In this document: positions 3,006 to 22,101 of the stretch, in pieces
Layout: each line of letters starts with the position of its first letter
How positions within the stretch are numbered: position 1 is the stretch's first letter
Assembly (NCBI GenBank): GCA_049975205.1
Contig: JBNGDL010000002.1
Span: 132,498-196,497, forward strand
Length of the DNA stretch: 64,000 nt
DNA from: Anaerolineae bacterium
Lineage (GTDB): Bacteria > Chloroflexota > Anaerolineae > B4-G1 > SLSP01
Direction: 5' to 3'
Notes under the pieces: generated by a model
What the model was told of the DNA's origin: nothing
Database searches by the model: none
Seen by the model: the letters and a program-made list of their open reading frames with translations, nothing else
Position numbers and translations under genes: made by a program

Positions 3006-3421
3006 AATGGAGCGCCACGCCGCCGTCGGAGGCGGTCATCCTAATCGTCGAGGATAACCTCAACAACTTCATCTTGATGACGAGGCTACTTGCTTTCCTG
3101 GGGGTCAAGAAATGCGAATGGAAGGCCTCGGGTTGGAAAGTCCTGGAGTTTGCCGAAACGCTGGGCAAAATCGATCTGATCTTGATGGACATTGCCCTTC
3201 CGGATGCTGATGGCTATGAGTCGCTGAAATCCTTACGGTCCGACGAGCGGTTTCAGGACGTGCCGATCGTAGCCGTGACGGCTAACGCTTCTGTTGAGAA
3301 CTTCCAGCGCGCCAAGAGAGAGGGTTTCGACGGGTTTATTGGCAAGCCCCTCGATCCGGAGCGCTTTCCAAACCAGGTGAGAAGAATCCTGGGGGGTGAG
3401 GAGGTATGGGAGCGGGTCTAG
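3002..3421 (+). CDS. Single-domain response regulator (CheY-like receiver), RR2
   Basis: ATGA start/stop overlap with RR1 (3002-3005). Receiver motifs are 'ILIVEDN', 'DLILMDIALPDADG', 'IVAVTA' and 'FIGKPL'. It is 139 aa with no output domain. Confidence 0.85.
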   Translation: MKWSATPPSEAVILIVEDNLNNFILMTRLLAFLGVKKCEWKASGWKVLEFAETLGKIDLILMDIALPDADGYESLKSLRSDERFQDVPIVAVTANASVENFQRAKREGFDGFIGKPLDPERFPNQVRRILGGEEVWERV

Positions 3422-5787: not shown

Positions 5788-5836
5788 GCCTGTGATGCGC
5801 TCGAAATGGATTGAGACACGGTGAGAGAGATGGCTC

Positions 5837-7840
5837 ATGTCTAAGGAGAGGATCAGCAGCGCCGTTACAGACGCTGTGACGGGATCGCGCAGGATGGCTG
5901 GGGATCCTGGGTACCTATCCAGCGACCAACTGCGCCGGATCCTGAGGATCGCCGCGCTCATTGTGCTGCCGCTGTGGGGACTGGTTGTGCTAGATCTTTA
6001 CGGCACGCCTCAGTCGTGGCTCATCACCCTCGCTGGCGGTGCGTTTGCCCTGCTCGTGATCGGGGCTTTCCTACCTTTACCTCGCACGCTCCGAGCCTGG
6101 ACGTTGCCCGTCGCGCTCTTCCTTCTGGGCAGTGTAGATCTGCTCGTCTATGGATGGACCGGAAGCGGTCGGGTGATATGGCTAGCAGCCGCCGCGGCGA
6201 CTGGCATCCTACTGAATGGGCGGTCGGGAGCTATTATCCTCGCTGCGGTCAGCCTGTTGCTGTTGGGCTATGTGGTGGTCTCCGGGGTGGGGCAGCTAGT
6301 ACCTGTGACACAGAGCCCTCAGCCACCGTTGATGATGCTCATCGCAGGGTGGGGCATCTTTGGTCTCTCTGGTGCGGCACTCATCGTGCTCCTGTGTCAG
6401 CTAGTAGCTGGGTTGCAGGGAGCGTTAGCGTTCGTTGAAGACGAGGCCCAACTTGCAGCCGCCGAACGCGACGAGAAGATAGCGCAGGCAACCGAACTGG
6501 AGGCGTCTGTAGAGGCTCTTGAGCGGAGGAACGCCCAACTGGAGGCGAGCCTTTCTGTGACCCGGCTGTTCTCGATCGTATTTGACCCCGAGGGACTGCT
6601 CAATCGGGCTTCGGAGCTTATCTCGGACCACTTTGGATTCGATCATGTAGCGATATATCTGATGAATGAGACCGGCGAATGGGCAGTGCTCCGGGCAGCC
6701 TCGTCGGTGCCAGGGAAGGAGCTCGTGCTCAAGGAGCAGCGAGTGCGGAGGGGAGAGGAGACGCGCGTGGGCTGGGTTGCCGAGCACCGGCAGCCGCGTC
6801 AGGAGGGTGTGTGCGAGCAGGTGCCGGCCTCGCTTGCTGTCGGCGATTTTCCTGGAAGCTGCTCGTTCCTCGCGCTTCCTTTGGTCGTCAATGGGCAGCT
6901 GCTGGGGATTCTTGATCTTCAGAGCAGTGACGAAAGCGCCTTTTTGGAGAGCGAAACGGAGGTGTTTGCACGGCTGGGGGAGCACCTGGCTCTCGCGATC
7001 AACAACGCGCAGCGCCTGGCTGACGAGGTCGTCCTTCTCGAGAAAGCCGATCCGTTCTATGCGATGACCAACCAACTGGCGACGGCGCGCTCGGAAGCGG
7101 AAGTCTATCAGATCATCCTTAACCCCCTTGTCGACTATAACCCCTCGCGGATTCTCGTGGTTCGTTCGTTTGACGACTCCAGAGATCTGTATGTGGTGGT
7201 CGATAGGGAGGCAGGGGTACCACCGGATGCGCTGGATGACGCACTGGTGTTTCCGGAGAAAGAGTTGGTCGATCTGCAGCCCTCCGGATTGGTCGATCTG
7301 GCGATCATCGGAACGGCTCTTGACGCGCCATTGTGGGCGGAGAACCTGTGGGATCTGGACTCCGAGCTCAGCCCCGAGCTTCGGATGGCCCTAGAGAGCC
7401 TTGCAGAGAGCAGCTCGGTTGGCGGGCTCTCCTTCATCCCCATCCGTTCGGAGCCGGGGTTTGAAGGTGGCGGTGACACCTCTACTGGTGGCAACACCCT
7501 TGGTGGCATCATTGTGCTCTACGGTACCGTGCATCGGTTTATGCCAATGGAGCGTCAGCTTCATAGACTCCTCACGGAGCTAGCTGGACCCGCTATAGAG
7601 CGCAGTCGGCTCCTTGCCGATGCACAAACACGGTTGGAGCAGGAACAACTGCTCTTTTCGATCGGTCAGCGACTTCGTGCCTCCTTCGACCCTGACGCGA
7701 TCCTGCGCACCACCCTAGAGGAACTTGGGACCCTGTTGGACGCTGAGTTGGCGGTGATTGAGATCAAGCCGGAGTTCGGTGAGCCGGAGGCCGGCTCAGG
7801 CGATGGGGCCGAGTCAGGCGAGCGCCTGGCAAGTGGGTGA
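5837..7840 (+). CDS. Polytopic (about 6 TM) membrane protein with coiled coil and 2 GAF-like domains, no output domain, protein B
   Basis: About six hydrophobic helices lie in aa 40-195. The coiled coil is 'EASVEALERRNAQLEAS'. The canonical GAF reads 'FGFDHVAIYLMNETGEWAVLRAASS...LALPLVVNGQLLGILDLQSSDESAF...LALAINNAQRL'. A second degenerate GAF contains 'LGGIIVLYGTVHRF'. It ends with the shared tail 'LLFSIGQRLRASFDPDAILRTTLEELGTLLDAELAVIEI'. No H-box or ATPase boxes are present. Confidence 0.7.
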   Translation: MSKERISSAVTDAVTGSRRMAGDPGYLSSDQLRRILRIAALIVLPLWGLVVLDLYGTPQSWLITLAGGAFALLVIGAFLPLPRTLRAWTLPVALFLLGSVDLLVYGWTGSGRVIWLAAAAATGILLNGRSGAIILAAVSLLLLGYVVVSGVGQLVPVTQSPQPPLMMLIAGWGIFGLSGAALIVLLCQLVAGLQGALAFVEDEAQLAAAERDEKIAQATELEASVEALERRNAQLEASLSVTRLFSIVFDPEGLLNRASELISDHFGFDHVAIYLMNETGEWAVLRAASSVPGKELVLKEQRVRRGEETRVGWVAEHRQPRQEGVCEQVPASLAVGDFPGSCSFLALPLVVNGQLLGILDLQSSDESAFLESETEVFARLGEHLALAINNAQRLADEVVLLEKADPFYAMTNQLATARSEAEVYQIILNPLVDYNPSRILVVRSFDDSRDLYVVVDREAGVPPDALDDALVFPEKELVDLQPSGLVDLAIIGTALDAPLWAENLWDLDSELSPELRMALESLAESSSVGGLSFIPIRSEPGFEGGGDTSTGGNTLGGIIVLYGTVHRFMPMERQLHRLLTELAGPAIERSRLLADAQTRLEQEQLLFSIGQRLRASFDPDAILRTTLEELGTLLDAELAVIEIKPEFGEPEAGSGDGAESGERLASG

Positions 7841-7846
7841 GGTGGC

Positions 7847-10705
7847 ATGCCATCGTTGCTGGTGTTGAGAATCGTACTGGTTGCCGGGGCATTTGTTGCC
7901 GGTGCTGGTGGCTTGCTGTTCGTGGCCAGACGACGGAAGCGCGAAGCTGCTGACATCTTGAGGACGGTACCCGATTCGATTCGACGGCGCCTCGGGCTCC
8001 ACATTGCGTTGATCGTATTGATACCCGTTGTGCTGATCGCAGGTGCTTCGCTGCTTCTCGGGATCCGTGCGAGCGAGCACCGTCTCTTGACGGCTCTGGA
8101 GGCCGCCGCAGAGATGCGCGTCGGCCACATTGAGACCTGGCGGGATGAGCTCCGGCTCGATGTGGCCATGCTGCACGGATTGGAGCTCGATAACCTCCAG
8201 GCACTTCTTTCCTCGCCCCGGGCATCGCAGGAGTTCGAGGACGCTTATGCTGTTGAAAGCCAACGGCTTCTCACTGCGCTCGAACCGCAGGGCAAGCTCG
8301 ACGTCATTGTCCTCGCGGATGCGCAGGGCGAGGTTGTCTTGTCCACAGCCTCATCGGACGAGCAGCCCGACATCAGCAAGGCAGCATTCTTCCCCGCAGG
8401 ATTGGAGAGTCCGTACGTGGGAGCCGTGACCCACTCTATCCTACTGGACGCACCCGCGATCACGGTCGCCATGCCGGTACCAGGCACTGACGGCTCGTTG
8501 GGCATCCTGGTAGGTCAGGCGACGTTAACCCATATTCGGGCGGAGCTCGCGGACCGGGCAGACCTGATCGAGACAGGCGAAGCATACGTCCTTGACGGGG
8601 AGGGGCGGTTCTTGGCGGGCGCGCTAGCCGACTCGATGTCTGCCTTGACCGTGGTCTCTTCCGAGGGCGTCGACAGCCTGCTGAGCTCCCGGCGTGATAC
8701 GAGCGGTCGCTACACCAACTACCGCGACGAGCCTGTGCTGGGCGTCTACCGTTGGCTCCCAGATCTTGAGTTGGCTGTGGTCGTCGAAGCGGAGCGCAAC
8801 GAGATCGTTTCGATGGCCCTACCAACGACGGGCTACACGTTGGCAATAGCCGTGGTCTCCCTGGCGCTGGCCCTCCTCGGAGGCGCTCTTGTCGCCGATG
8901 CCGTGTCGCGTCCGATTTCTGAAATGGCTGAAGCGGCGACCCGGTTTGCTCAAGGCGACCTGACTGCGACCATACCGATAGAGCGGCAGGATGAGCTTGG
9001 GCAGATGGCACTCGCGATCAATGAGATGGCGGAGCGTCTCCGTGAGACGGTGAGCGACCTGGAGGCACGTGTGGCTGACCGCACAGCTGACCTCGAACGT
9101 CGGTCGACGCGACTGCAGACGGCGGCGGGCATCGCCAGACAAGCGGCTTCGATCCGGGAGGTAGATGAACTGCTTCGCGTCGTTGCCGATCAGGTTGTGG
9201 AGCGGCTCGGCTTCTACCATGTGGGCGTATACTTGCTGGATTCTGCGCGTCGTCTGGCGGTCCTCCGGGCTTCAGCGGGTGCTGCCGGTGAGCAGCTCTT
9301 GACGCGGGGTTTCCAAGTTGCGATGGACGAGGAGGTTGTGGGGATGGGGAGGGCCATTGCCGCCGCGGCGTCCTCCGGGCGAGCAGCCATTGTTTCGGAC
9401 GTCCTGGTCGACGAGCGGTACTTAGCTGCGGCTGAGCTTCCCGAGACGCTCTCCGAGATGAGTCTGCCGATCAGGGTGCGCGATGAGATCGTTGGTGTCC
9501 TAGATCTACAATCGGATAGCCCGGGGGTCTTCTCCGAAGATGATGTGACCTATCTCCAGACTTTGGGAGACCAGATCGGCCTGGCCGTCGAGAATGCGTG
9601 GCTCTTAGCAGAGACTACGGAACGATTGCGGGAGACAGAGCGATTGGTTCAGGCGCAGCGACGCGAGGGGTGGTGGCAAATGGCGTCAGAGCGCCCGGTT
9701 TGGTCATATGTCTACGATGGCGTAGAGGTCATGTCTGTTGATGAGGCAGCGGCATCGTGGCTCAGTTCGACATCGTCCGAGGATGCTCCAGATGTCGTCC
9801 TACCGATTGGAGAGCGCGGAGATGAAGTTGGCTCTGTGAAGCTCAGACTGCGAGGACGCGATGGGTTGTCGCGCGACCAGATGCAGCTGGCCAGGGCCAT
9901 CATCGGGGAAGCAGGTAGCGCGCTGGAGCGCGCACGGCTCTTCGGCACGACGCAAGCGGCGCTGCAGGAAGCGAGCATTCTGTATCACTGCAGCCGCGCG
10001 ATGATGGGTGCAAACAGTGAACGAGAGGTGGTGTCCGTCATCGCAGATCACGTGGCAACGTCTGATATCGACCGCGTGATACTACTGGCGCGGGAGACCC
10101 TCGTTGACGCCGCACAGCCGACGGTAAGGGTCGTCGCGACCTGGAGCCAGGCTGAGGAAGGCTCCGTCCCGATCGGTCAGCGTTGGCCCCTGGACCGCGT
10201 CCCAGCGGTGGCTGGTGCGACCTCGGGATGCCGAGCGGTGAACGACGTTGCGGCGTCGGAGGTACTGGACTCAGTCTCGCGGGACGTGCTCCTTGAGGAT
10301 ATAGGGGTCAGGAGCGCGTTGATCCTGCCGCTTTCCTTGAATGGAGAGACCTTAAGGTGGTTGATCCTAGGCACCAGTTCTGTCCCCCACACCTTCCGCG
10401 ATTCTGAGATGCGGCTCTACCGCGGACTCGCCGATCAGGCCGCTATCGTGATTCGCAACTTCCAGCTGCTCGAGTTGGCGACTAAGAGAGCCGAGCGCGA
10501 GCGTCGAATCGCTGAGGCCGGCGCCCGCATTCGGCGTTCTACTGATATCCAGACGATACTGCAGACGTCTGTGAGCGAACTGGCCCGTGTTCTGGGGGCC
10601 CGCGAGGGCTCGATTCGTCTACATTCGGACGGCGACCAAGATGGGCCGGTTGATCGGCAGGATGAGCCCACTTCTCTGGAGGCTGGGGCTGATTCCAATG
10701 AATGA
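7847..10705 (+). CDS. Transmembrane double-Cache-like/HAMP sensor with ~3 GAF-like domains, no output domain, protein C
   Basis: TM1 is at the N-terminus. A ~300-aa periplasmic region has Cache-like strings ('VIVLADAQGEVVLSTA', 'YVLDGEGRFLAGA', 'YRDEPVLGVYRWLPDLELAVVVEAE'). TM2 follows, then HAMP ('RPISEMAEAATRFAQGDLTATIP..DELGQMALAINEMAERL') and the S-helix 'LEARVADRTADLERRSTRLQTAA'. The canonical GAF contains 'LGFYHVGVYLLD...LPETLSEMSLPI..IVGVLDLQSDSPGVF'. A W/Y.Y mini-GAF and a third GAF follow, then the shared tail. Confidence 0.75.
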   Translation: MPSLLVLRIVLVAGAFVAGAGGLLFVARRRKREAADILRTVPDSIRRRLGLHIALIVLIPVVLIAGASLLLGIRASEHRLLTALEAAAEMRVGHIETWRDELRLDVAMLHGLELDNLQALLSSPRASQEFEDAYAVESQRLLTALEPQGKLDVIVLADAQGEVVLSTASSDEQPDISKAAFFPAGLESPYVGAVTHSILLDAPAITVAMPVPGTDGSLGILVGQATLTHIRAELADRADLIETGEAYVLDGEGRFLAGALADSMSALTVVSSEGVDSLLSSRRDTSGRYTNYRDEPVLGVYRWLPDLELAVVVEAERNEIVSMALPTTGYTLAIAVVSLALALLGGALVADAVSRPISEMAEAATRFAQGDLTATIPIERQDELGQMALAINEMAERLRETVSDLEARVADRTADLERRSTRLQTAAGIARQAASIREVDELLRVVADQVVERLGFYHVGVYLLDSARRLAVLRASAGAAGEQLLTRGFQVAMDEEVVGMGRAIAAAASSGRAAIVSDVLVDERYLAAAELPETLSEMSLPIRVRDEIVGVLDLQSDSPGVFSEDDVTYLQTLGDQIGLAVENAWLLAETTERLRETERLVQAQRREGWWQMASERPVWSYVYDGVEVMSVDEAAASWLSSTSSEDAPDVVLPIGERGDEVGSVKLRLRGRDGLSRDQMQLARAIIGEAGSALERARLFGTTQAALQEASILYHCSRAMMGANSEREVVSVIADHVATSDIDRVILLARETLVDAAQPTVRVVATWSQAEEGSVPIGQRWPLDRVPAVAGATSGCRAVNDVAASEVLDSVSRDVLLEDIGVRSALILPLSLNGETLRWLILGTSSVPHTFRDSEMRLYRGLADQAAIVIRNFQLLELATKRAERERRIAEAGARIRRSTDIQTILQTSVSELARVLGAREGSIRLHSDGDQDGPVDRQDEPTSLEAGADSNE

Positions 10706-10774
10706 CCCACGGAGATCTGTCAGGATGACCGGTAGCGGCAGGCGCTACGCTTCATCCAGAGAGGGCTGCTTGCG

Positions 10775-12958
10775 ATGATGCCGTGGCGGAGGAGCCTGGC
10801 GTTTCGAGCGCTGCTGGTTCTTGGCGGGTTCTCGCTCTTGGCCCTGAGTGTCGTGGGGGTGGGTGGGTATCTTCTGGGACGCCGGCTGTTGGAAGATGCG
10901 GTGGCGTCCGAAGTCACTCTCGTGGCGCAGTCAAGGGCGGATGAGATCGGTCGATGGTTAGATACCCAAGAGGCCCAACTCCTGACGATCACAGAGGCCC
11001 CATCCGTGCAGACCTGGACGCAGGTCATCAGCACGACCGATGTATCATCCCCAGACTCCCAAGTGGCCTCTGAGGAGCTATCTGCGCACTTGACCACGCT
11101 GGTGGGTCGGCTGCCCGGAATACGCCAGCTGTCTGTGCTGAGCAGCCCTGAGGGACTCGTCTTAGCATCAACGAATCAGGAACTTGAGGGCACGACTATG
11201 GCCACCGATAGGGCCTACACCGAGGGATTGGCGGGGCTCTATCGGAGCAAAGCCTCGGTGGTGCCAACAACGGGGGCGATCATGATGACTATGTCGGCGC
11301 CCCTCAGGAATGCGGCGGGGGACCTTCTTGGGGTCGTCATCATGGGCCTCGACCTAGATTCGATGCAACACTCGATCCTCGACCGTGTTGGACTTCGGAG
11401 TGGATGGGAGCTTTATCTCGTCGACAGCGATGAGCTGCGGGTTGTCGGCCCGAGCACAGCCCCGGGGCTCGGACTGGAGCTGTGGCCTGAGGCGGTCAGT
11501 CTGATTCGCGGAGAGGACGGGGGCACGGGCGTTTACCGGAATCACCAGGACGAGTTGGTCATCGGTACATATAAGGGGATCGAAGCGCTTGACGTGGTGC
11601 TGCTGATTGAAGCTGACTATGCAGCTGCGGTTGGAGACCAGCTTGAGAGACTCCGTCTGAGCATTGTCGGCGGCGGGTTCCTGGTCGTTGTCATTCTTGG
11701 TGTTGGGATCTATCTGTTGAGCCACCACGTTGCCGAGTCATTGGGAGATCTGAGTCGAAGACTCAGCGGTGTAATCGAAGGTGAGATGCGCCCCTTGCCG
11801 GTGCCGTATGCCCTGAGGGAGAACGAGATCGGAAAGGTGATGCGGGCCTACAATGCCATGGTCCGCCATCTTGGTCACCGTAGCGCCGAGATGGAGACGC
11901 AACTCGAGGAGGGCAGGGCCTCGCTGCGTCGACGGTCCCGACAACTTCAGGCAGCCACACGGATCTCCAGCGCCGTCTCAGCCATTCGGGACGTGTCGGC
12001 CCTCCTTGATGAGGCAGTAAGGCTGATACCCGAGACCTTTGACTACGACCACGCCGGCATTTTCCTGATTGATGAGGCGCGAGGGTATGCTCGGCTCCAG
12101 GCGGCGTCCTCGGAAGGGGGACAACGGATGCTGGCGCGCCAGCACGAGCTGCGTCTGGGTCAGGGCATCGTGGGGTCGGTTGCGCAGACCGGAGAGCCCA
12201 GGATCGCGTTGGATGTTGGTGAGGATCCTGTTTTCTTCGATAACCCTGACTTACCCTTGACCCGCTCTGAGATGGCAGTGCCGCTGACGGCTCGTGATCC
12301 GGCTGCTGGAACACGGTCCGTGATTGGGGTGCTTGACGTGCAGTCCAATCGCGCCGGAGCGTTTTCTTCTGAGGATGTTCTAGTGTTGCAGAGTATGGCA
12401 GATCAGGTCGCACTTGCGATCGAGAACGCGCGACTCCTCGAAGAGACCGACCAGGCGATGCGCGAACTCGAGCTACGGTATGGCGAGCGAGCGGCCCTGT
12501 CCTGGTCCCAGCGCTTGGGACGCGGTGGTCCTGGATACAGATATACCGGCGTCGCGGTGGTGCCGCTGGACACAGAGTCCTCTCAGCCTGCAACCAGGGT
12601 GGCCACGATTCGTGAGTGCGGAGATGGCCTTCGTGAACTATGCGCACCGATCCTCATCCGTGACCAGGTGCTGGGTTCAGTCGCGTTTCGGCAGCGGGTC
12701 GACGAGGAGCCGTGGGATGATGAGGATGTCGCTATGGTGAATGCACTCTGCAATCACATCGGTCAGGCCCTAGAACATGCGCGGCTGCTCAATGAAAGCC
12801 AATTTCGGGCACGGCGCGAGCGTCTGCTTGGTGATCTTGCTTCCCGGATGCGCGAGACACTGGACACAGATCTCATCTTGCAGACTGCTATTCGGGAGAT
12901 CGGACAGACGTTGGGTGTTTCGGATATTGAGGTTCGTATGCGCGGGAGCGACCGGTGA
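10775..12958 (+). CDS. Transmembrane double-Cache-like/HAMP sensor with GAF + mini-GAF, no output domain, protein D
   Basis: TM1 is 'LLVLGGFSLLALSVVGVGGYLL'. The Cache-like periplasmic region contains 'LVLASTNQELEG', 'YLVDSDELRVVGP' and 'HQDELVIGTYKGIEALDVVLLIEAD'. TM2 and a HAMP-like segment follow. The canonical GAF contains 'FDYDHAGIFLIDEARGYARLQAASSEGGQRMLARQHELRLGQGIVG..PDLPLTRSEMAVPL..VIGVLDVQSNRAGAF'. The mini-GAF contains 'WSQRLGRGGPGYRYTG'. The tail is 'LASRMRETLDTDLILQTAIREIGQTLGVSDIEVRM'. Confidence 0.75.
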   Translation: MMPWRRSLAFRALLVLGGFSLLALSVVGVGGYLLGRRLLEDAVASEVTLVAQSRADEIGRWLDTQEAQLLTITEAPSVQTWTQVISTTDVSSPDSQVASEELSAHLTTLVGRLPGIRQLSVLSSPEGLVLASTNQELEGTTMATDRAYTEGLAGLYRSKASVVPTTGAIMMTMSAPLRNAAGDLLGVVIMGLDLDSMQHSILDRVGLRSGWELYLVDSDELRVVGPSTAPGLGLELWPEAVSLIRGEDGGTGVYRNHQDELVIGTYKGIEALDVVLLIEADYAAAVGDQLERLRLSIVGGGFLVVVILGVGIYLLSHHVAESLGDLSRRLSGVIEGEMRPLPVPYALRENEIGKVMRAYNAMVRHLGHRSAEMETQLEEGRASLRRRSRQLQAATRISSAVSAIRDVSALLDEAVRLIPETFDYDHAGIFLIDEARGYARLQAASSEGGQRMLARQHELRLGQGIVGSVAQTGEPRIALDVGEDPVFFDNPDLPLTRSEMAVPLTARDPAAGTRSVIGVLDVQSNRAGAFSSEDVLVLQSMADQVALAIENARLLEETDQAMRELELRYGERAALSWSQRLGRGGPGYRYTGVAVVPLDTESSQPATRVATIRECGDGLRELCAPILIRDQVLGSVAFRQRVDEEPWDDEDVAMVNALCNHIGQALEHARLLNESQFRARRERLLGDLASRMRETLDTDLILQTAIREIGQTLGVSDIEVRMRGSDR

Positions 12959-13046
12959 TGGTCGAAGTTCAACCGTTTAGGCGGACGATCTTCTCGGAGA
13001 TTGAGGACGCCGTGACTGGTGTGGACCCGAGACGGGAGGATGTGCT

Positions 13047-14756
13047 ATGCTAGAGCGATTGCGATCGTTCTTCCTTCCTCCGACGTTCGAGAGCGACGAG
13101 AAGACGCGGGAAGCGCATTTGGCCTACCTCGTGGCGTGGCTCTTCGTGATTCTCCCGGCGGCATACGGGCTCTTCCGTCTCCTCTCCGAGACCGAATCCA
13201 CGTCAGCGGTCTTGCCACTGGCGCTATTCGGAGTGAGCGCCATCAGCGGCGTCATTCTCGTCGTGATCCACCGCGGTTCGGTGAAGGTGGCGAGCTGGCT
13301 GCTGGTGATAGCAAGTTGGATAGGCTTCTTGTTGCTCAGCTGGAACCTAGGTGGCGTCCGGGATGCTAGTTACGCCGGTTTGATTCTTGTTATCGTCTTG
13401 GCGGGTCTGCTGCTGGGCGGCACCGCGAGTGCCGTGGTGGTGGCGTTCAGTGTTCTCCTGGGCTGGTTCCTGGTCGATGCCGAAGTATCCGGCATACTGC
13501 CAGCGGACTATGATGCGCCCGCCGACGTGCTTGCGAGTTTCGTAGCGATTTTCACGATGGCTGCTGGATTGGTTGCTGTCGCAAGCCAGGGATTCCGGCG
13601 GTTGTTGACTCGCATTCGTCAGAATGAGCGGCAGTTGGAGATCCGCAACCGGCAGCTTCAGGCGATGCGAGAGTCACTTGAGCAGCGTGTTGCTGAGCGT
13701 ACGTTGGACCTCGATAAACGCTCTCGTTACCTCGAGGCCGCCGCTGAGGTCGCGTACGCTGCGGGCCAGATCTTGGATGTTGAGGACCTGATGCGCGAAT
13801 CGGTCGATCTGATCCGCGACACCTTCGATCTCTACTACGTGGGCCTCTTCCTGGTCGACGGGGCCCGTGACTACGCTGTCCTGCGTGCTGGCACCGGTGA
13901 GGCAGGACGCACGATGCTGGCCCGAGAGCATCGTATTCGCGTCGGACAGGGCATGGTGGGGTGGGCGATCGAGAACAACCAGAGTCGTGTTGCCCAGCAT
14001 GCTGAGGAGGATCGCGTCCGCCTTGTAATGTCTGAGCTGCCTGAGACGCGGGCGGAGGCGGCGCTACCGTTGCGGGCGCGAGGAAACGTTATCGGTGCGC
14101 TCACAGTCCAGAGCGTGGTGCCCGACTACTTCAATGAAGCCACCGTGACGACGCTCCAGACCATGGCGGATCTCCTAGCCATTGCTCTGAACAACGCAGA
14201 GTTGTTTGAGGAGCGTGAGCGGGCAATGGCAGCGGTGCGGCGAGCCTATGGCGAGGTCGCGACGCAAGCGTGGGACGAACTCCTGCGCGCCCAAGATGAT
14301 TGGGGTTACCGCTACACAGACGGTATCGTCCGCCCGTCGGATCAAGTATCGGAGACGGTGCAGGAAGCGCTGCGACGGGGCGAACCGGTCTATGACCTGG
14401 AACAGCGCGCGTCAGAGGTGGCGATTCCTCTGCGAGTGGGTGGGGAGACCATCGGTGCTATCGGCTATCGACGCCGCGCCGAAGAAGGCGCTTGGGAGGA
14501 GGAGGATGTGGCCTTCCTAAGCGCTTTGACGGAGCAGTTGTCGCAAGCTCTTGATAGCGCGCGGCTGTTGGATGAGAGTAGGAAAACCGCGGCCTTGGAG
14601 CAGGCCATCGTCCAGGTCACGTCGCGCATCCGGGCAGAGGTTGAGATCGAGGCTGTCCTGGAGCGGACGCTTGCCGAGTTAGGAGCCGTCCTGGAAGCCG
14701 ACCAAGGCCACGCGCTTCTGACAATCGATGCTGCCTCTGGGGAGGAGACGCGATGA
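13047..14756 (+). CDS. Polytopic (about 6 TM) membrane protein with S-helix, GAF + mini-GAF, no output domain, protein E
   Basis: RBS GGGAGGA sits 6 nt upstream of the ATG. About six hydrophobic helices are followed by a coiled coil 'LEQRVAERTLDLDKRSRYLEAAA' with no HAMP. The canonical GAF contains 'FDLYYVGLFLVDGARDYAVLRAGTGEAGRTMLAREHRIRVGQGMVG...LPETRAEAALPL..VIGALTVQS'. The mini-GAF contains 'WDELLRAQDDWGYRYTDG'. The tail is 'VTSRIRAEVEIEAVLERTLAELGAVLEADQGHALLTI'. Confidence 0.75.
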   Translation: MLERLRSFFLPPTFESDEKTREAHLAYLVAWLFVILPAAYGLFRLLSETESTSAVLPLALFGVSAISGVILVVIHRGSVKVASWLLVIASWIGFLLLSWNLGGVRDASYAGLILVIVLAGLLLGGTASAVVVAFSVLLGWFLVDAEVSGILPADYDAPADVLASFVAIFTMAAGLVAVASQGFRRLLTRIRQNERQLEIRNRQLQAMRESLEQRVAERTLDLDKRSRYLEAAAEVAYAAGQILDVEDLMRESVDLIRDTFDLYYVGLFLVDGARDYAVLRAGTGEAGRTMLAREHRIRVGQGMVGWAIENNQSRVAQHAEEDRVRLVMSELPETRAEAALPLRARGNVIGALTVQSVVPDYFNEATVTTLQTMADLLAIALNNAELFEERERAMAAVRRAYGEVATQAWDELLRAQDDWGYRYTDGIVRPSDQVSETVQEALRRGEPVYDLEQRASEVAIPLRVGGETIGAIGYRRRAEEGAWEEEDVAFLSALTEQLSQALDSARLLDESRKTAALEQAIVQVTSRIRAEVEIEAVLERTLAELGAVLEADQGHALLTIDAASGEETR

Positions 14757-16507
14757 ACGAGCGCGGGCGTCGTCGCTTGGATGGTGTGCGCCAAGCCTGG
14801 CATCGCCTTGTGACGGTCAACGGCTCCGCCGCGACTCACCTCGATGCGGAGAAGGTTCGCAAGGCTGTGCTGCTCAACACCCTGATCGTCGGGGGCTTTG
14901 GTGTGGCGGTGGGCATTACGGTGGCCATTGCGGTCGCTAGCCGTCTTGGGTATCTTGCTTTCTGGGAACAGACTGCGGGGTTCCTGTTTTTCCCCTTCAT
15001 ACTCTTGGCTATCTCGGCTCTAGCCATCACGATGGCCAAGCGCGGGGAAATTGACCGCGCGGCGTGGCTCTACGTATGGGTGACCTTTGTGACAGTTGTC
15101 GCTGCGGCGATCTTGCTAGATGGATACCGTTCGGCGGGTTGGCTGCTGGTGATCTGGCCCGTGGTTCTGGCTGGGACGTTGCTACGGGCCTGGGTAGGCT
15201 TGCTTTCTGCGTTTGGCGCTGTGGCGATCTATGGGGCCGTTGCTGCGGCTCAGGCGGCCGGCGTGTATACGCCAGTCGTGACCACGCCGGCAGGGGGCTT
15301 CCTCTTCTTCGGGCTGTTTTTCGGCTGGTTGATGATCGTGATAGCTGCGGGGCTGGTGACCTACGTCAATGGGACGAGCCTGCATCGCGCTTTGGCCGGG
15401 CTCAGTGAGGCCTCGCGCGACCTGGAGCTCGCCCGTCGGGCGTTGTCAGAAGACATCGCTGTCCAGTCACGGGAGCTGAGAGAGAGAGCCGGGCAATTCC
15501 GGGCGATCGCTGAGCTAGGGCAGGCGACGGCATCCGTGCGCGATGTGGATGAGCTCATGAGCACAGCCGTGAATCTGATCTCTCAGCGGCTGGGTTTCTA
15601 CCACGCAGGCATCTTCCTCTTGGACGCGCCGCGAGAATGGGCTGTCTTGCGTGCTGCGTCCTCTGAGGGCGGCCGGCGCATGCTTGCGCGGCGCCACCGT
15701 CTGCGTGTTGGTGAAGAGGGCATCGTGGGGTACGTGGCCGAGATGGGAATCTCGCGGATCGCATTGGACGTCGACGATGACACTGTATGGGTCAGCAGTC
15801 CGGATCTGCCCGAGACGAAATCGGAGATGGCTCTTCCCTTGATCTCAGGGGATCAGGTGTTGGGGGTTCTGGACATCCAGACGACCGCGGTTGCTGCGTT
15901 CGACGAGGACGATATCGATGTGCTGCAGGTCCTGGCGGATAGTCTCGCTACAGCCATTGCTAATGCTGAGCTGCTAGAAGAAACCCGTGCGGCCATGAGG
16001 CGGCTGGAGCGGTATCAGGAGACCGACGCGGTTCAGGCGTGGCGTCGAGCGTTAGCCCGACGAAACCTGCGTGTTGGGTATAGCTATGTTTCGGGGGAGA
16101 CGACATCATCGCGTCCCGACGAGATAGATCCCGAGGGGACCTGGAAGGGGCTCGTCGGCGTCACCCGTCAAACAACAGAAAGCGGTGAGCACACGTTGCT
16201 GGCGCCGATCACCGTTGGAGGGCGTCGTCTAGGAATGCTGTCCTTCGAGCGGAGCGCGCCCTGGAGCGATGAGGCTGTCCAGCTTGTTGAGGCTGTTCTC
16301 GACCAGCTCGACCTGGCGCTGGATAACGCGCGCCTTCTGGAGGAGACACAACGGACCGCCAGTCAGGAGGCTGCACGTAGCCAGATCGTGGGCAGGATCC
16401 GGGCTTTGACCAGCACCGATGCAATTCTGCGCAGTGCGGCGGAGCAGTTGGGTAAGGCGCTTCACGTCGAACGTAGCCGCATTCAGCTGGTGCAATTCGA
16501 TGACTGA
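14753..16507 (+). CDS. Polytopic (about 6 TM) membrane protein with coiled coil, GAF + mini-GAF, no output domain, protein F
   Basis: ATGA overlap with protein E, and RBS GGGGAGGAG upstream. There are about six hydrophobic helices. The canonical GAF contains 'LGFYHAGIFLLDAPREWAVLRAASSEGGRRMLARRHRLRVGEEGIVG..PDLPETKSEMALPL..VLGVLDIQTTAVAAF'. The mini-GAF contains 'WRRALARRNLRVGYSYVSG'. The tail is 'IVGRIRALTSTDAILRSAAEQLGKALHVERSRIQL'. Confidence 0.75.
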   Translation: MNERGRRRLDGVRQAWHRLVTVNGSAATHLDAEKVRKAVLLNTLIVGGFGVAVGITVAIAVASRLGYLAFWEQTAGFLFFPFILLAISALAITMAKRGEIDRAAWLYVWVTFVTVVAAAILLDGYRSAGWLLVIWPVVLAGTLLRAWVGLLSAFGAVAIYGAVAAAQAAGVYTPVVTTPAGGFLFFGLFFGWLMIVIAAGLVTYVNGTSLHRALAGLSEASRDLELARRALSEDIAVQSRELRERAGQFRAIAELGQATASVRDVDELMSTAVNLISQRLGFYHAGIFLLDAPREWAVLRAASSEGGRRMLARRHRLRVGEEGIVGYVAEMGISRIALDVDDDTVWVSSPDLPETKSEMALPLISGDQVLGVLDIQTTAVAAFDEDDIDVLQVLADSLATAIANAELLEETRAAMRRLERYQETDAVQAWRRALARRNLRVGYSYVSGETTSSRPDEIDPEGTWKGLVGVTRQTTESGEHTLLAPITVGGRRLGMLSFERSAPWSDEAVQLVEAVLDQLDLALDNARLLEETQRTASQEAARSQIVGRIRALTSTDAILRSAAEQLGKALHVERSRIQLVQFDD

Positions 16508-17624
16508 CCTGCGAGATTGGGTGAGGAGGCGCCACGGTCATCGACTGTTGGCTATCTTGGCGATGGTCCTCTGCATTGCCTCGTGCGCATCCGGGCCCAC
16601 GCCACGCCCAGGTGCGCCGACTGGGCGTGCGGACGACGGAGATCGTGGGCCACTGCGGGTGTTTTGGGTGAACAGTTACACGTCGGACGATCGATGGGCC
16701 CTCAGGATCCGTACAGGTATTCTCGAAGCTCTTGCTCGATCGGGGTACAGCGTGGCGGACGACACGCTCTCGTGGGGAACTTACCATCTTGAGGCGTCCG
16801 GTATCGGCGATAGCGCCGAGAGCATGCGGCGCCTGAACGAAGTCACAGAGGTCATAAGGATTCTCCAGCCGGAGATCGTCATCGTGTCAGATGACGAGGC
16901 ATTTCAGTTGATGATGCCGACGTACAGCGACCCCGAGGTCCGATTTGTCTACTGCGGTGTGGGGGCGACGGCGGAGTCGATGTCGTCGTTGCCCGACAAT
17001 GTGTTTGGGGTCCGAGAGCCGGTGCCCGCTGTTGAGACTCTGTCCATGGGTCGGTCGTTGACGGGGGACGAAGGGCGATACCTTCTGATCGGCGACGGCT
17101 CGATTACGGGACAGATCGTGACAGCTAGGGCCTATAACGAACTGGCGCGTGAGGCGTCTGATGGCGCCACACCATTCCTGGGTGTGGCGGGCTCTTGGGA
17201 GGAGTGGACGACCCTGGTGCAGAGCCGGTCGGGGGAGGTGGATTTCATCATTGTCACGAGCTACCAACCGCTTATAGATGCACAAGGGGAAGTCGTGACT
17301 GGGCAAGCGATGATGGCATGGATGCTCTCGAATGTGTCGGTTCCTGTCTTTTCGCTCTCGGAGACCTTAGTGATAGATGGGGCTGTGGGCGGACTTGTCT
17401 CCGATGCGTACAAGCAGGGACAGGCCGCCGGCCAGATCGCGGCCCGGTTGGCGCAGCACGGCGGCGTTGAGGCCGATTCGCCTTTAGTGGGGAGCGGCAG
17501 CCGATTGGTACTTAACGCAGCTGCGGCCCGTCACTGGGGCTTGCGCATTCCGGCGTTGTTTCCCATTGCGGCTGAGGTCTATCTCAGTCTGCCTGTCGGG
17601 TATGGAGGACAGCCTGATGCGTGA
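16500..17624 (+). CDS. Solute-binding lipoprotein (ABC-type substrate-binding-like fold, no transporter partner nearby), protein G
   Basis: I place the start at ATG 16500, overlapping the stop of protein F by 8 nt; the listed 16419 start runs inside F. The signal peptide has a lipobox ('RRRHGHRLLAILAMVLCIAS-C-ASG'). The alternating beta/alpha periplasmic-binding-protein style sequence includes 'LRVFWVNSY', 'IVIVSDDEAFQLM', 'FVYCGV' and 'DFIIVTSY', reminiscent of the ABC_sub_bind family. The family assignment comes from memory only. Confidence 0.6.
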   Translation: MTDLRDWVRRRHGHRLLAILAMVLCIASCASGPTPRPGAPTGRADDGDRGPLRVFWVNSYTSDDRWALRIRTGILEALARSGYSVADDTLSWGTYHLEASGIGDSAESMRRLNEVTEVIRILQPEIVIVSDDEAFQLMMPTYSDPEVRFVYCGVGATAESMSSLPDNVFGVREPVPAVETLSMGRSLTGDEGRYLLIGDGSITGQIVTARAYNELAREASDGATPFLGVAGSWEEWTTLVQSRSGEVDFIIVTSYQPLIDAQGEVVTGQAMMAWMLSNVSVPVFSLSETLVIDGAVGGLVSDAYKQGQAAGQIAARLAQHGGVEADSPLVGSGSRLVLNAAAARHWGLRIPALFPIAAEVYLSLPVGYGGQPDA

Positions 17625-20600
17625 AGCTGAGGTACGAAGGCGAGGTCTGAGCCTCCGCTGGCGCGTCATCCTGATCGTCGCGGGGATTTCGCTGCTATTG
17701 GTCACGCCTGTGATGCTCTTTGTGGGCCGGCGCTACCAGAATGCCTATCGTGAGGCTTACTGGAGTAAGGGCGATCTGGCTACTATTCAACTGCGCCAGA
17801 CGATCCGCGCTATTTCGCCCTTTGTGGAGACGGTGGGTGACGCTCCTGGCTTAGCAGCTTATTTACAGGACATCGGCGCTAACGTCAGCGACTTCGATTT
17901 CATCGCCTTGGTCGACGGCAACGGACGCGTGCTGATGCATTCGATTCCTGGCTACGAGGGCCGCACGCTCGGTGAGCTGCGAGATCTGGCGGCGGGCGCG
18001 ACTGAGCGAGGTCCGTCTGACGACCCCTATTCGGTTGTCCGGCGAGAGTTGCCCTTTGGCTTGACGTATCTCATCTGGCGCTCCATGCCGATGCCTGGCA
18101 ATGACCAAGACGAGCTCTACATTGTTGTGGGCGAGCGAGCGGCTCTGGTCGATCCTCCAATCTATCCACTGATTGCGATTGGGTTGCTTGCAGCCGTCCT
18201 TCTGGTCGTGCTCATCCGTATTTCCTTGGATCGCCTCGTGATCACGCCCCTGAACCTGCTGGCGGAAGGGGCAGCGATCGTTGGCGCTGGGGAGCTCAGT
18301 CATAAGATTCCGCTGGATCGTGATGACGAGTTTGGCTTTGTCGCACAGGCATTCAACGAGATGGCTGGGCGACTGGAAGAGATCGTGACCCGCCTCGAGC
18401 AGACCGTGACCGAGCGCACGGCAGCCCTCCAACGCCGTAATGCACAGCTCGAGGCTGCGAGCCTTGTTGGACAGGAGGCCGCTCGGGAGCGCAATGTGAA
18501 CGCTATATTGGATACTGCTGTCCGTGCGATCTCTGATAATTTCGGCTTTTACCACACGGGCATTTTCATCGTCGATGATAACAAGGAGTGGGCGATCCTC
18601 AGATCGGCTTCCTCAGAGGGCGGCAGGCGGATGCTGGCCCGAAATCATCGCCTGCAGGTCGGACAAGTCGGCATCGTCGGGCACGTTGCAGCGTCCGGTA
18701 GACCTCGCGTTGCCCTCAACGTGGGCCAGGATGCTGTCTGGTTCAACAACCCGGATTTACCCATGACGAAGTCTGAGATGGCGCTGCCGTTGATCTCGGA
18801 GGGCGAGGTCATCGGTGTGCTGGACGTCCAAAGTCAACAGGTATCCGCCTTTGCGGACGAAGACATCAGTACGCTTCAATTGATGGCCGATCAGCTGACC
18901 GTGGCCCTGAATAACGCTCGGGCACTCGAGGTGACAGAATCCGCGCTCGCCGAGCTACGAGCGCTACAGGTAGACTTCGCGCGGAGTGGATGGGCCCGGA
19001 TCTCGAACCGAGCGCGGCCTGTTGCTTACGAATATGACCGGGTCGATACAGCGCCAGTGGCGCCGCTGGAGGTGCCAGCGGAGCTCGCAGAGGGCAAGGT
19101 CGAACATAGTCTTGTAACTGACGGCGGCGTGCCGATGGTTCTGGAGGAGCTGCGGGCAGGGAACCAGGTCCTGGGCTACCTTGGCCTGTCGGATTCGCGC
19201 CGCACTTGGTCAGAGGAGGAATTGGCCTTCATTCACAGCGTCGGGGAGCAAGTGGCACTCGCATTGGATAACGCGCGGTTGTTCGAAGACACACAGCGCA
19301 ACGAGCGACAGCAGTACCTAATTAGCCAGGTCCTGCAGGCAGCCTCAGCCCCCGGCCTCAGCAGCGATGAAGCCCTGGTGGAGATCGCTAGGGTCTTGGC
19401 TCACGGCCTAGATATGGCGGTTGCGATTCTGACTTTCGAGCAGCTGCAGGTGCCAGTGATCCAGGCGCACACCTTCGTCAGCCCAGAAGGAGAGCCGCTT
19501 CCCCTCTTCGTGGAAGGGTCTGGGCTCTCGTCAGAGCAATCCGCCTTCCTGCAAGGCCTTGTCGAGACTGACGGGGGATCCGTTGCGCCTCTCCTCGGTG
19601 TGACGGAGAGCCCGTCCGCCGCCGATCCAGACGCTCGCCGTACCTTGCGTGCCTACGATACCGAGCGCGTTCTCTACGTTCCGATCAGGCGGGCTAGTGG
19701 GCTGACCAGTGGCTGCATGAGCTTGGTTCAGTATCTCGATGCACCTCACTTTGACTCTGACACGCGGGAACTGATGGAGACCTTGGCGGGGCAAATCGCT
19801 GTAGTGCTGGAGAACCTGACGCTTTCCGAGGAGACCCGTCAGCGCTCGGAAGAGCTCCGCCAGCTCTATCGGATTTCGTTGAGGTTGGCCGAACTCCTGG
19901 AGCCAGACGACGTGCTGGATGAGTTGGTGAGCCAGGGGGCAGTATTGCTGAATGCCGATGGTGCCAATCTATGGGTCTACGATGCTAACGCAGAGATCCT
20001 TGCGTTGAGGTCTAGCAACGGGGGCGGTGCTGAAGGTGAGCTCGGCCGCCGCCTCCGATTGGGTCAGGGGCTAGCGGGCATGGCGTTGGCGCAGCAGCAG
20101 ACCGTCCGTGTCGATGATTACGCGTCTTGGCAAGACCGCATTCCTGATCTCGTGAGTCCAACCTTACACGCGACGATGGCGATCCCGCTGGTGGGCCGAT
20201 TCGGGCCTCTTGGTGTTCTGGTGCTGCTGTCTCGTCAGATCGGTTTCTTTGGCGAGCGAGAGGCAGGCCTTGGGGAGCTCTTCGCTGCTCAGGGTGCGGC
20301 AGCCTTGGAGAACGCCCGCCTCAACCAGGACGCTCAGCGGCGGGCGGAGGAGTTCTCTCAGCTTTACGAGGCCGGCACCGACCTGATCACAATTCTGGAC
20401 TTGGAGGAGTTGCTGGACCGTGCTGCAGACTGGGCGCGGCGTATCTTCGCTGCGGAGCGAGTTGTGGTCACAGTTCGGGATCCAGAGTCGGGCGCCTTTA
20501 TCAGGGGACAGTGTGCCAGTGTGCCAGAGTATCTAGTAAGCCAGGGAGCCGATCAGGCGGCAACCGATGGACTCGTTGAGCGGTTGATGGTGTCGCGGGA

Positions 20601-22101
20601 GAGCCTGCTGGTCCCCGACGCTCGCGAGACTGCTGCACCCGACGCCGCGGAGCTTCCCCGGACGGACATGCTATCCCAGATGGGTGCGTCATTGCAGGTG
20701 GGCGACGAAGTGTTGGGTGCCATCCTCGTCAACGGGGCAGCGATCGAGCAGTTCACGCGTCGGGATCTGGATCTGCTGGAATTCCTGGCTACTCAGGTTG
20801 CATCGGCGCTCCAGAACTCCATCCAGTTTAGACAAACTGAAGAGGCCCTTTCTGTCGTGGGGCAACAGGCTCGCTACCAGACCAACATCTCGCAGGCCGT
20901 GGCACTCTTGAACGAGCGCGGCACGGATGCGACGGGTGATGTTCTCCGGCTGCTCGGCGAGGCGGCCGAGGTGCCAACTGTCCTCTACTTCGAGTCGAGG
21001 GTGAACGGAGACGGGAGCTACTGGTGTCTGCAAGCGCAGTGGGCCGCGCCCGGCCGTGCTCCTGACCGCCTCCAGGATCAGCGATTCCAGCGCTTGTCGA
21101 CCTCCGAGACTGACCCATGGGTGCGCTCGTTGAGGCAGCAGGGATACGTCATGGGTAAGCTGCGACACCTGCCAGGAGCTAAGGATGATGGCATCGTAGC
21201 ATCGGGGTCTGGCGCCGTTCTCGGGCTCGCGGTCCCCGGCGAGACGCGAATCCCGGCATTTGTCGCGCTGCTTAGAGACGACGCCGTGCTGTGGGAGGAT
21301 CAGGAAATCGTGGCGCTGCAGACGGCGGCGGCCGCGCTGTCAAACACGCTGGCCCGTGAGAGGCTTTTCGCGCAGGTCCAGCAGACCCTTAGCGAGACAG
21401 AAGCCCTCTATCGAGGAAGCGCTGCGTTAACCCAGGCTAGTGCTTATCAGGACATTCTGGATGTCCTGCTGGCGCACACGATCTTGGGAGAAGAACCGCA
21501 CATGTCGACCCTTCACCTCTTCGACCAGATGTGGAGCGGTGAGGAGCTGCCTACATACTCGGAGGTCGTGGCCTCTTGGAGCCGCGAGCCCCAGGCTGAG
21601 TTGCGGCGCAGATATGAGGTCCGTAAGTACGCCGACTCGCTTCGTGCGATGGAGGATGGGGCACCGGTGTTCGTAGAAGACCTTGAGCGAGACGCGATGC
21701 CGGATCGGAGATTGCACGCGCTCTTTGAGAGAGCTATGGGGGCCCAGAGTGTGGTCCTCGTGCCGCTAGTGGTCAGTGGGCAGAAGATTGGGTTTCTGCA
21801 CGCCGACTACCCGACGCCGCGCACTTTCCCCGAATCGGCACGGCGTCGTCTGGTAAGCCTTGCGCAGCAGGCCGCGATTGCGGCCCTCAACATCCGGCAA
21901 CTACGGGCCAGTGAAGCCCGCGCACGTCGCGAGCAGCTCATTCGGCAGATCAGCAGTCATATCCAGGAAGCACCCGACGTGCAAGGCGTGTTGGAGACGG
22001 CTGTCCGAGAGCTTGGACGAGCTTTCGGCACGTCTCACAATCGCATCCAGTTCCGACCGCCCAGCGGGGCTGGAGGGAGTCCGGGGGATGGCGATGCATA
22101 G
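17617..22101 (+). CDS. Transmembrane sensor (small periplasmic domain-HAMP-S-helix) with ~7 GAF-like domains, no output domain, protein H
   Basis: I place the start at ATG 17617. GGAGGA sits 7 nt upstream and the start overlaps the stop of protein G by 8 nt. Two TM segments flank a ~150-aa outside region. HAMP is 'TPLNLLAEGAAIVGAGELSHKIP..DEFGFVAQAFNEMAGRL' and the S-helix is 'LEQTVTERTAALQRRNAQLEAAS'. The canonical GAF contains 'FGFYHTGIFIVDDNKEWAILRSASSEGGRRMLARNHRLQVGQVGIVG..PDLPMTKSEMALPL..VIGVLDVQSQQVSAF'. The mini-GAF contains 'WARISNRARPVAYEYD'. Five further GAF-like repeats follow. The tail is 'ISSHIQEAPDVQGVLETAVRELGRAFGTSHNRIQF'. No H-box or ATPase boxes are present. Confidence 0.75.
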   Translation: MREAEVRRRGLSLRWRVILIVAGISLLLVTPVMLFVGRRYQNAYREAYWSKGDLATIQLRQTIRAISPFVETVGDAPGLAAYLQDIGANVSDFDFIALVDGNGRVLMHSIPGYEGRTLGELRDLAAGATERGPSDDPYSVVRRELPFGLTYLIWRSMPMPGNDQDELYIVVGERAALVDPPIYPLIAIGLLAAVLLVVLIRISLDRLVITPLNLLAEGAAIVGAGELSHKIPLDRDDEFGFVAQAFNEMAGRLEEIVTRLEQTVTERTAALQRRNAQLEAASLVGQEAARERNVNAILDTAVRAISDNFGFYHTGIFIVDDNKEWAILRSASSEGGRRMLARNHRLQVGQVGIVGHVAASGRPRVALNVGQDAVWFNNPDLPMTKSEMALPLISEGEVIGVLDVQSQQVSAFADEDISTLQLMADQLTVALNNARALEVTESALAELRALQVDFARSGWARISNRARPVAYEYDRVDTAPVAPLEVPAELAEGKVEHSLVTDGGVPMVLEELRAGNQVLGYLGLSDSRRTWSEEELAFIHSVGEQVALALDNARLFEDTQRNERQQYLISQVLQAASAPGLSSDEALVEIARVLAHGLDMAVAILTFEQLQVPVIQAHTFVSPEGEPLPLFVEGSGLSSEQSAFLQGLVETDGGSVAPLLGVTESPSAADPDARRTLRAYDTERVLYVPIRRASGLTSGCMSLVQYLDAPHFDSDTRELMETLAGQIAVVLENLTLSEETRQRSEELRQLYRISLRLAELLEPDDVLDELVSQGAVLLNADGANLWVYDANAEILALRSSNGGGAEGELGRRLRLGQGLAGMALAQQQTVRVDDYASWQDRIPDLVSPTLHATMAIPLVGRFGPLGVLVLLSRQIGFFGEREAGLGELFAAQGAAALENARLNQDAQRRAEEFSQLYEAGTDLITILDLEELLDRAADWARRIFAAERVVVTVRDPESGAFIRGQCASVPEYLVSQGADQAATDGLVERLMVSRESLLVPDARETAAPDAAELPRTDMLSQMGASLQVGDEVLGAILVNGAAIEQFTRRDLDLLEFLATQVASALQNSIQFRQTEEALSVVGQQARYQTNISQAVALLNERGTDATGDVLRLLGEAAEVPTVLYFESRVNGDGSYWCLQAQWAAPGRAPDRLQDQRFQRLSTSETDPWVRSLRQQGYVMGKLRHLPGAKDDGIVASGSGAVLGLAVPGETRIPAFVALLRDDAVLWEDQEIVALQTAAAALSNTLARERLFAQVQQTLSETEALYRGSAALTQASAYQDILDVLLAHTILGEEPHMSTLHLFDQMWSGEELPTYSEVVASWSREPQAELRRRYEVRKYADSLRAMEDGAPVFVEDLERDAMPDRRLHALFERAMGAQSVVLVPLVVSGQKIGFLHADYPTPRTFPESARRRLVSLAQQAAIAALNIRQLRASEARARREQLIRQISSHIQEAPDVQGVLETAVRELGRAFGTSHNRIQFRPPSGAGGSPGDGDA

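Follow-up and report, generated by a model that had tools for sequence, protein, structure and literature searches.

How do sensor proteins without an output domain pass on a signal, and does a conserved protein end play a part in it? The question is raised by a stretch of 64,000 nucleotides (the window) from an Anaerolineae (Chloroflexota) metagenome-assembled genome (MAG), contig JBNGDL010000002.1, positions 132,498 to 196,497, whose list of open reading frames (ORFs) contains nine same-strand genes, A–I, at 3406–28755. Six of the encoded proteins, B, C, D, E, F, and H, have Cache/HAMP or multi-pass N-termini followed by GAF domains only. A Pfam scan of these six proteins found no output domain, confirming the suggestion of a first-pass annotation of the sequence that they are output-less, and all six finish in the same way.

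The common ending is a single ungapped module with a core of about 45 residues, which we call the tail. It is composed, in order, of the end of the closing helix of the preceding GAF domain (ALxNARLL), a charged linker helix (xxRRAxRExLxxEIxxRIR), an S/T-x-D turn, an amphipathic helix (xxILxTAVxELGxAL), and a short alternating, strand-like segment (xxRxxVxL). A variable end follows, of 1–24 residues in the window and up to approximately 100 residues elsewhere. The six end peptides quoted in the first-pass annotation all proved to be in frame at the positions given there, and the common end module that it described was recovered by a tail profile, which stops 1–24 residues before the stop codon in each of the six proteins:

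7583..7774, + strand, tail of B: 73.1 bits with the tail profile, 23.0 bits leave-one-out; 21 residues to the stop at 7840
10433..10630, + strand, tail of C: 72.7 bits with the tail profile, 23.4 bits leave-one-out; 24 residues before the stop
12755..12952, + strand, tail of D: 77.9 bits with the tail profile, 20.7 bits leave-one-out; 1 residue before the stop
14532..14723, + strand, tail of E: 59.0 bits with the tail profile, 18.7 bits leave-one-out; 10 residues before the stop
16301..16501, + strand, tail of F: 82.1 bits with the tail profile; 1 residue before the stop
21865..22065, + strand, tail of H: 77.4 bits with the tail profile, 18.5 bits leave-one-out; 11 residues before the stop

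The similarity of the tails is beyond chance. In the leave-one-out procedure, a hidden Markov model (HMM) made from the 40-residue core alone of five tails was run on all 518 six-frame ORFs of the window; the left-out tails were retrieved at 18.5–23.4 bits (E-values from 1e-6 to 3e-5), and the best non-tail match in the six-frame translation of the window did not exceed 6.4 bits. Hence, the tails form a class of their own and are not just any GAF openings. None of approximately 25 internal GAF openings of the window matches the tail profiles significantly. This includes the places inside H and before the HisKA domain of protein I where the same pattern had been noted in the first-pass annotation: these are indeed generic GAF openings, but they are not tail-like and have no tail-profile score.

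Relation of the tail to GAF domains

A profile built from 75 diverse tails was compared with the Protein Data Bank (PDB) and matched the N-terminal helix and first strand of phytochrome and cyanobacteriochrome GAF domains, namely 6OAP (residues 125–181, E = 6e-14), 8W26 (1e-12), 2LB5 (3e-8), 6OZA/6OZB (1e-7), and 6BHN (3e-7). All these matches are localized at the GAF N-terminus, with alignments that begin in the linker helix and reach the beginning of the first strand. Moreover, tail-like copies occur inside longer proteins, and every internal copy inspected is followed by the remaining part of a GAF. Taken together, the PDB matches and the internal copies that open GAF-like units indicate that the tail is a GAF domain cut after its first strand, as had been proposed from the window alone; the statistically significant profile similarity to the GAF N-terminus contradicts the alternative of no GAF relationship. 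Judged by this similarity, the tail derives from a GAF of the phytochrome/cyanobacteriochrome type, of which it represents the opening: linker helix, turn, amphipathic helix, and first strand.

The internal copies differ in what comes after them. In P0158, P0086, P0093, P0154, and P0203, multi-GAF proteins of the same family, the module is followed by a reduced "mini-GAF," and in P0237 by a hairpin and the closing helix only. These internal mini-GAFs, as well as one in a fused ORF described below, share the opening module with the window tails (35–78 bits) but continue with strands and the closing helix, whereas the window tails have only the short variable end. A complete domain of the type that gave rise to the tail can be seen in P0134, a library representative, where each of four tandem full GAFs is opened by a tail-like module (RIRxSLDLDxILxTxVxEVRxLL, 31–39 bits, within residues 250–880).

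In the phytochrome and cyanobacteriochrome GAF structures that were compared, which include PDB 3W2Z, the opening has the same linker helix, "IRxS-x-D" turn, amphipathic helix, and first strand as the tail, with conserved hydrophobic residues and conserved T, E, and R. In contrast to the tail, which ends after the first strand, these domains have about 120 further residues forming the sheet and the ligand pocket. The signatures differ as well: ELG-x-AL-G and S/T-R-A-x-V-R-L in the tail, EVRQLL and DRVLIYRF in phytochrome-type GAFs. The tail is far from a complete GAF fold (approximately 130–150 residues, with a sheet of five or six strands and a closing helix), as the chain stops 1–24 residues past the first strand.

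No family model in Pfam or NCBIfam covers the module. When searched alone, none of the tails reaches the gathering score of the Pfam GAF families (PF01590/PF13185/PF13492): the C tail matches GAF positions 1–30 at 13.3 bits, below the cut-off of 22.4, and the other five have no GAF match. A degenerate DHp/HisKA or pseudo-kinase hairpin was considered and rejected, since no tail matches HisKA and a conserved His is missing; the lone His position of the H tail is Arg in the other five. The F tail has a sub-threshold match to HWE_HK (14.9 bits), a profile that we take not to cover the His position, and the NCBIfam MadS-kinase matches arise from the GAF part rather than from the tail. A literature survey found nothing on natural GAF fragments or on such arrays, and no description of the tail.

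Terminal position and conservation in Chloroflexota

For the comparison of genomes, a protein was assigned to the terminal family if it had a tail match of at least 40 bits, not more than about 100 residues from the C-terminus and after a GAF-type closing helix; all six window proteins belong to the family (59–82 bits). A scan of species-representative genomes yielded 29 loci (L001–L029), all of them in Chloroflexota MAGs (Anaerolineae/Anaerolineales, Thermoflexales, and Caldilineaceae), and most of these loci hold the same tandem array. In the 29 loci and the window, 143 strong copies of the tail (≥40 bits) lie within 100 residues of the ORF end and three are internal. Of the 120 best homologues of the region formed by the first GAF (GAF1), a mini-GAF, and the tail, 118 are terminated by the tail, with a median of 12 residues beyond it. 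Thus, proteins in other genomes also end with this module, a point that the first-pass annotation had proposed to check; continuation of orthologues past the tail, which would have spoken against it, is not seen among the metagenomic orthologues of F, as 16 out of 16 stop at the same point.

The family is large. At least 3302 database proteins match the GAF1–mini-GAF–tail profile at an E-value of 1e-10 or better. An exhaustive search with the mini-GAF and tail profile retrieved 36,457 library representatives at 1e-3 or better, most of them giant multi-GAF proteins; 34 of the best 149 finish with a strong tail (36–72 bits), and the internal matches are mostly at 20–27 bits. A word-indexed search with the tail profile gave only 31 short fragments.

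Several loci deviate from the common gene structure. In L016, the site of one of the three internal copies, a 1467-codon ORF (2715–7115) fuses two genes that are separate in the sister loci L011 and L013: the upstream tail is followed 12 residues later by the strand-onward part of the downstream mini-GAF, and about 165 N-terminal residues of the downstream protein are lost. The fusion either is natural and arose by deletion, or is an artefact of the assembly. Tail-coding regions split over two frames in L006 (1391–2141) and L026 (10112–10310) are likely frameshifts or MAG sequencing errors.

Among F orthologues, no other part of the protein is as well conserved as the tail. The column conservation calculated for 15 orthologues of F is 0.86 in the tail helix and strand, 0.81 in GAF1, 0.60 in the mini-GAF sheet, and 0.55 in the membrane region. 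Between the window paralogues the order is reversed, with an identity of 27% in the tails and 44% in GAF1. The non-redundant list of tails contains recurring flavours, each found in several loci, e.g., the H-type (IQEAPDVxGVLxxAVRELGRAFGT), E-type (RAEVEIEAVLERALAELG), and F-type (ALTSTDAILRxAAEELGxALQVERSRIQL). Slow change in orthologues combined with fast change between paralogues is a pattern expected of a specificity-determining surface, and may reflect one here, although it is not a proof. The earlier proposal that the tail is maintained by selection and not produced by random truncation is strongly supported by the end points of the F orthologues (16/16) and of the homologues (118/120), the terminal location of the strong copies (143 against 3), and the top conservation in F. 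At about 45 residues, the tail constitutes a C-terminal module that is autonomous and under selection, with flavours conserved across genomes. By its sequence relationships, it appears to be a newly described terminal module of GAF origin, the hallmark of a large family of output-less Chloroflexota sensors encoded in syntenic loci.

The gene array and its mini-GAFs

The nine genes of the window are as follows:

3406..5787, + strand, gene A: membrane histidine kinase at the array head; HAMP, GAF, HisKA, and HATPase (Pfam); no tail match
5837..7840, + strand, gene B: multi-pass membrane protein; two GAF domains and tail; no output domain, no W-type mini-GAF
7847..10705, + strand, gene C: dCache, HAMP, GAF, W-type mini-GAF (9611–9955), GAF, tail (Pfam)
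10775..12958, + strand, gene D: dCache, (HAMP-like), GAF, W-type mini-GAF (12443–12802), tail (Pfam)
13047..14756, + strand, gene E: multi-pass membrane region, GAF, W-type mini-GAF (14211–14582), tail (Pfam)
14753..16507, + strand, gene F: multi-pass membrane region, GAF, W-type mini-GAF (15986–16351), tail (Pfam, AlphaFold2)
16500..17624, + strand, gene G: predicted lipoprotein, TrpX-like ABC-type substrate-binding protein (Pfam ABC_sub_bind; NCBIfam TrpX-like, E = 7e-7)
17617..22101, + strand, gene H: membrane/periplasmic region, HAMP, GAF, W-type mini-GAF (18934–19296), several GAFs, tail
22171..28755, + strand, gene I: soluble hybrid histidine kinase of 2194 residues; PAS, approximately nine GAF units, HisKA, HATPase, and two receivers (Pfam)

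In the ORF list, H opens at TTG 17566; the likelier start is ATG 17617. Identical sequences of E and F are present at NCBI as MGC9467067.1 and MGC9467068.1, where each bears just the name "GAF domain-containing protein." The tail profile has no match in kinase I or kinase A.

Each gene of the array is followed by the next one within 7–90 bases or overlaps with it, the overlapping junctions being E/F (14753–14756), F and the likely start of G (16500–16507), and G and the likely start of H (17617–17624). Given this tight spacing and the three overlaps, the set looks like one operon-like array, and the start/stop overlaps suggest translational coupling at these junctions. The whole array is syntenic across the 29 MAG loci, from Anaerolineae, Thermoflexales, and Caldilineaceae: five to seven tandem tail-ending sensors are followed by a long multi-GAF sensor and a PAS–multi-GAF hybrid kinase. 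Gene G is kept 3' of F in 17 related loci, and the order F-(G)-H-kinase recurs wherever related loci extend far enough.

Two loci, L011 (4762–7128) and L009 (4744–7128), contain an array member that the window lacks. This apparently soluble protein starts with two repeats of about 55 residues (…VEVPEG…LSDLAVG…MIDDI…), followed by two W-type mini-GAFs, other GAF-like units, and a tail. Elsewhere in the window, there are a 346-residue ORF with HisKA and no HATPase_c match at an E-value of 1e-4 or better (55647–56687, + strand) and a 1199-residue ORF with no Pfam family at the same threshold (34619–38218, − strand).

Proteins C, D, E, F, H, and kinase I (at 24229–24627) each contain one reduced GAF-like unit of about 120 residues that is not called by Pfam. 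We refer to it as the W-type mini-GAF after its conserved Trp helix and GYxY strand; it also has a hairpin and a closing helix, and is always located directly after a GAF of the "FYHxGIFLLD" type. Tails directly follow a W-type mini-GAF in 89 of 143 cases in the loci and in 103 of 118 homologues, and in the remaining 54 of 143 cases they follow a complete GAF. Conversely, the mini-GAF is found without a tail in 20 long kinase-like ORFs, the I-type kinases. The window itself has six tails and six W-type mini-GAFs, B having a tail without a mini-GAF and I a mini-GAF without a tail. A one-to-one bookkeeping, in which the B tail would serve the mini-GAF of I, was discarded, as the count fails in other loci, where a single tail may accompany two mini-GAFs in a protein, and 29 tails belong to proteins without a mini-GAF.

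Possible roles of the tail

The conformation of the tail was addressed with AlphaFold2 models of F and with residue couplings. A shallow-alignment model of residues 409–584 is a single long helix across the closing helix, linker, and tail. A deeper model (128 sequences, residues 227–584, mean pLDDT 85) contains a canonical GAF1 and a five-stranded W-type mini-GAF, followed by a helix (280–324) that breaks exactly at the TSTD turn, a second helix (329–343), and an unpaired end. The terminal 15 residues are coil, as expected for a strand that has no partner in a monomer. Neither model folds the tail back onto the preceding domain. Fold searches produced only weak GAF matches for the first model (E of 0.02 or worse) and clear GAF and tandem-GAF matches for the second, none of them specific to the tail.

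Mean-field direct coupling analysis (mfDCA) was applied to 203 sequences of the mini-GAF plus tail. Of the top 100 coupled pairs, 30 are within the tail, 12 connect the linker and the tail, and four connect the tail and the mini-GAF, the last being the least enriched class (0.13%). For the coupled positions, the sum of the two indices stays roughly constant, and the positions would roughly fit a helix-helix-strand zig-zag, as in a real GAF opening. With an effective number of sequences of about 131, we count mfDCA as weak evidence only. The internal couplings, along with the occurrence of the tail after different kinds of domains, suggest that the tail is autonomous. Docking, strand complementation, and capping were put forward as hypothetical roles in the first-pass annotation; the models and couplings argue against complementation of the preceding domain within the same chain and are compatible with either docking or capping.

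Of all modules, only the tail is found in every output-less sensor and in neither kinase; it is also the most conserved one and comes in flavours, and for these reasons we read it as the effective output of the sensors. Retention of the same ending in the same array across many Chloroflexota genomes likewise makes it probable that the tail passes the signal on. The best explanation, offered tentatively, is that it is a paralogue-specific pairing or recognition element, which would most probably dock to the co-encoded kinase I or A. Tandem-GAF proteins are typically parallel dimers held by inter-domain helices. If the sensors are such dimers, the linker helix of the tail would extend the dimeric helical spine, and the second helix and strand would pack back on the linker helix, forming a small terminal unit. 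This unit could serve as a recognition surface that determines the pairing among paralogues, and could dock the sensors in the membrane to a partner acting downstream, with kinase I or kinase A as the best candidates. A kinase encoded by a separate gene would then sense conformational changes that travel along the GAF spine.

Several points weigh against such docking. The conservation and flavours are equally expected from homodimer specificity alone, with no docking to a kinase. The AlphaFold2 models are of monomers only, and in the deeper one the tail has a moderate pLDDT of about 75–78. The coupling signal may be largely phylogenetic, given about 131 effective sequences and a strong subfamily structure. 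Finally, a GAF without its own opening, an obvious acceptor, was not recognized in the window; other genomes were not searched for one.

A comparison can be made with methyl-accepting chemotaxis proteins (MCPs), which have no enzymatic output and signal via a conserved interaction module. Like the tail-ending proteins, they are sensors of the membrane that combine sensor and HAMP modules and lack a catalytic output; in both cases, a single cytoplasmic element is highly conserved and a soluble kinase is encoded nearby. In contrast to MCPs, the tail-ending sensors have no MCP signalling domain, CheW, or CheA; their conserved element is a 45-residue GAF fragment instead of a helical hairpin tip, and kinase docking is here only proposed. 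An MCP-type transducer was rejected as a classification, since B–F and H have no MCPsignal match and no signalling domain with a hairpin tip; D has only a marginal Pfam match to an MCP-like periplasmic sensor domain. Signalling-helix and coiled-coil linkers, which join tandem GAF, PAS, and DHp domains, resemble the initial half of the tail, whose helix runs on without interruption from the last helix of the GAF before it. Such linkers, however, connect two domains, whereas the tail finishes as a stub of helix and strand whose conservation exceeds that of the domains before it.

The main rival to docking is a structural cap: the tail would close and stabilize the dimeric coiled coil leaving the last GAF and enforce homodimer specificity without contacting any other protein, signalling then proceeding via other surfaces or the proteins acting by ligand sequestration. 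The continuity of the linker helix with the last GAF helix in both AlphaFold2 models agrees with a cap, as do the couplings internal to the tail, and the flavours would also block heterodimers among six to seven co-expressed paralogues. At the same time, a cap alone does not explain why the tail outranks the ligand-binding GAF1 in conservation, nor why all output-less members keep it and the kinases, whose GAF spine also ends in a helix, do not; moreover, it leaves the sensors without a signalling route. We consider it less likely than docking. Less probable still is a more specific version of docking, complementation in trans, in which the helix and strand of the tail would complete a GAF-like domain of another subunit or a GAF of kinase I, following the model of donor-strand exchange known from pilus subunits. 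It draws on the internal copies that are followed by the GAF remainder (minimally a hairpin and helix, as in P0237), on the in-frame fusion in L016, which joins a tail directly to the strand-onward mini-GAF of the next gene, on the unpaired terminal strand in the monomer models, and on the equal numbers of tails and W-type mini-GAFs in the window. However, this equality fails in other loci, the W-type mini-GAF comes out of AlphaFold2 as complete, having five strands and an opening helix of its own, though with low confidence in its first part, the window offers no opening-less acceptor, and the L016 fusion could come from misassembly.

Two further explanations deserve much less credit. The frequent location of tails directly after W-type mini-GAFs, together with the low confidence at the modelled start of the mini-GAF (pLDDT about 61–68), could point to a circularly permuted GAF, with the tail in D, E, and F folding back to supply the opening of the preceding mini-GAF. 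This is very improbable: the two AlphaFold2 models agree in having no fold-back, and tail–mini-GAF couplings are the least enriched. The 54 tails after complete GAFs and the 20 kinase-like ORFs with a mini-GAF and no tail led us to reject it as a general explanation; neither constant co-occurrence of both parts nor contact or co-variation between them, as a permuted domain should have, was found. The least credible explanation is that the shared ending is an artefact or a neutral relic, i.e., truncated gene calls, assembly breaks, or recent pseudogenization of longer multi-GAF genes. The relatives are indeed dominated by giant multi-GAF proteins of 1000–3900 residues, and this makes truncation of a longer multi-GAF ancestor the likely origin of the tail. 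Yet the same end point recurs in 29 independent MAGs and hundreds of database proteins, and it is the tail that has the strongest conservation in the protein, so an assembly or annotation artefact is refuted; besides, the closely spaced or overlapping next gene leaves no room for a missing GAF remainder.

A more far-reaching form of docking, rather unlikely in our opinion, is a split sensor-kinase, where six to seven output-less sensors would plug into one hybrid kinase via their flavoured tails, each of which may complete a specific GAF unit of the kinase or pair with it. If true, one kinase would integrate many inputs by a paralogue-specific docking code, a GAF-based counterpart of the coupling of chemoreceptors to CheA. 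Sensor proteins without an output are common in genome censuses, and their signalling route is mostly obscure; the tail marks a large family of such proteins and gives annotators a model for a region that is blank in Pfam and NCBIfam. As a natural, stable sub-domain fragment of GAF, it may also interest engineers of split phytochrome and cyanobacteriochrome reporters. Since the tail is syntenic beside a kinase and has distinct conserved flavours, its role in Chloroflexota is directly testable.

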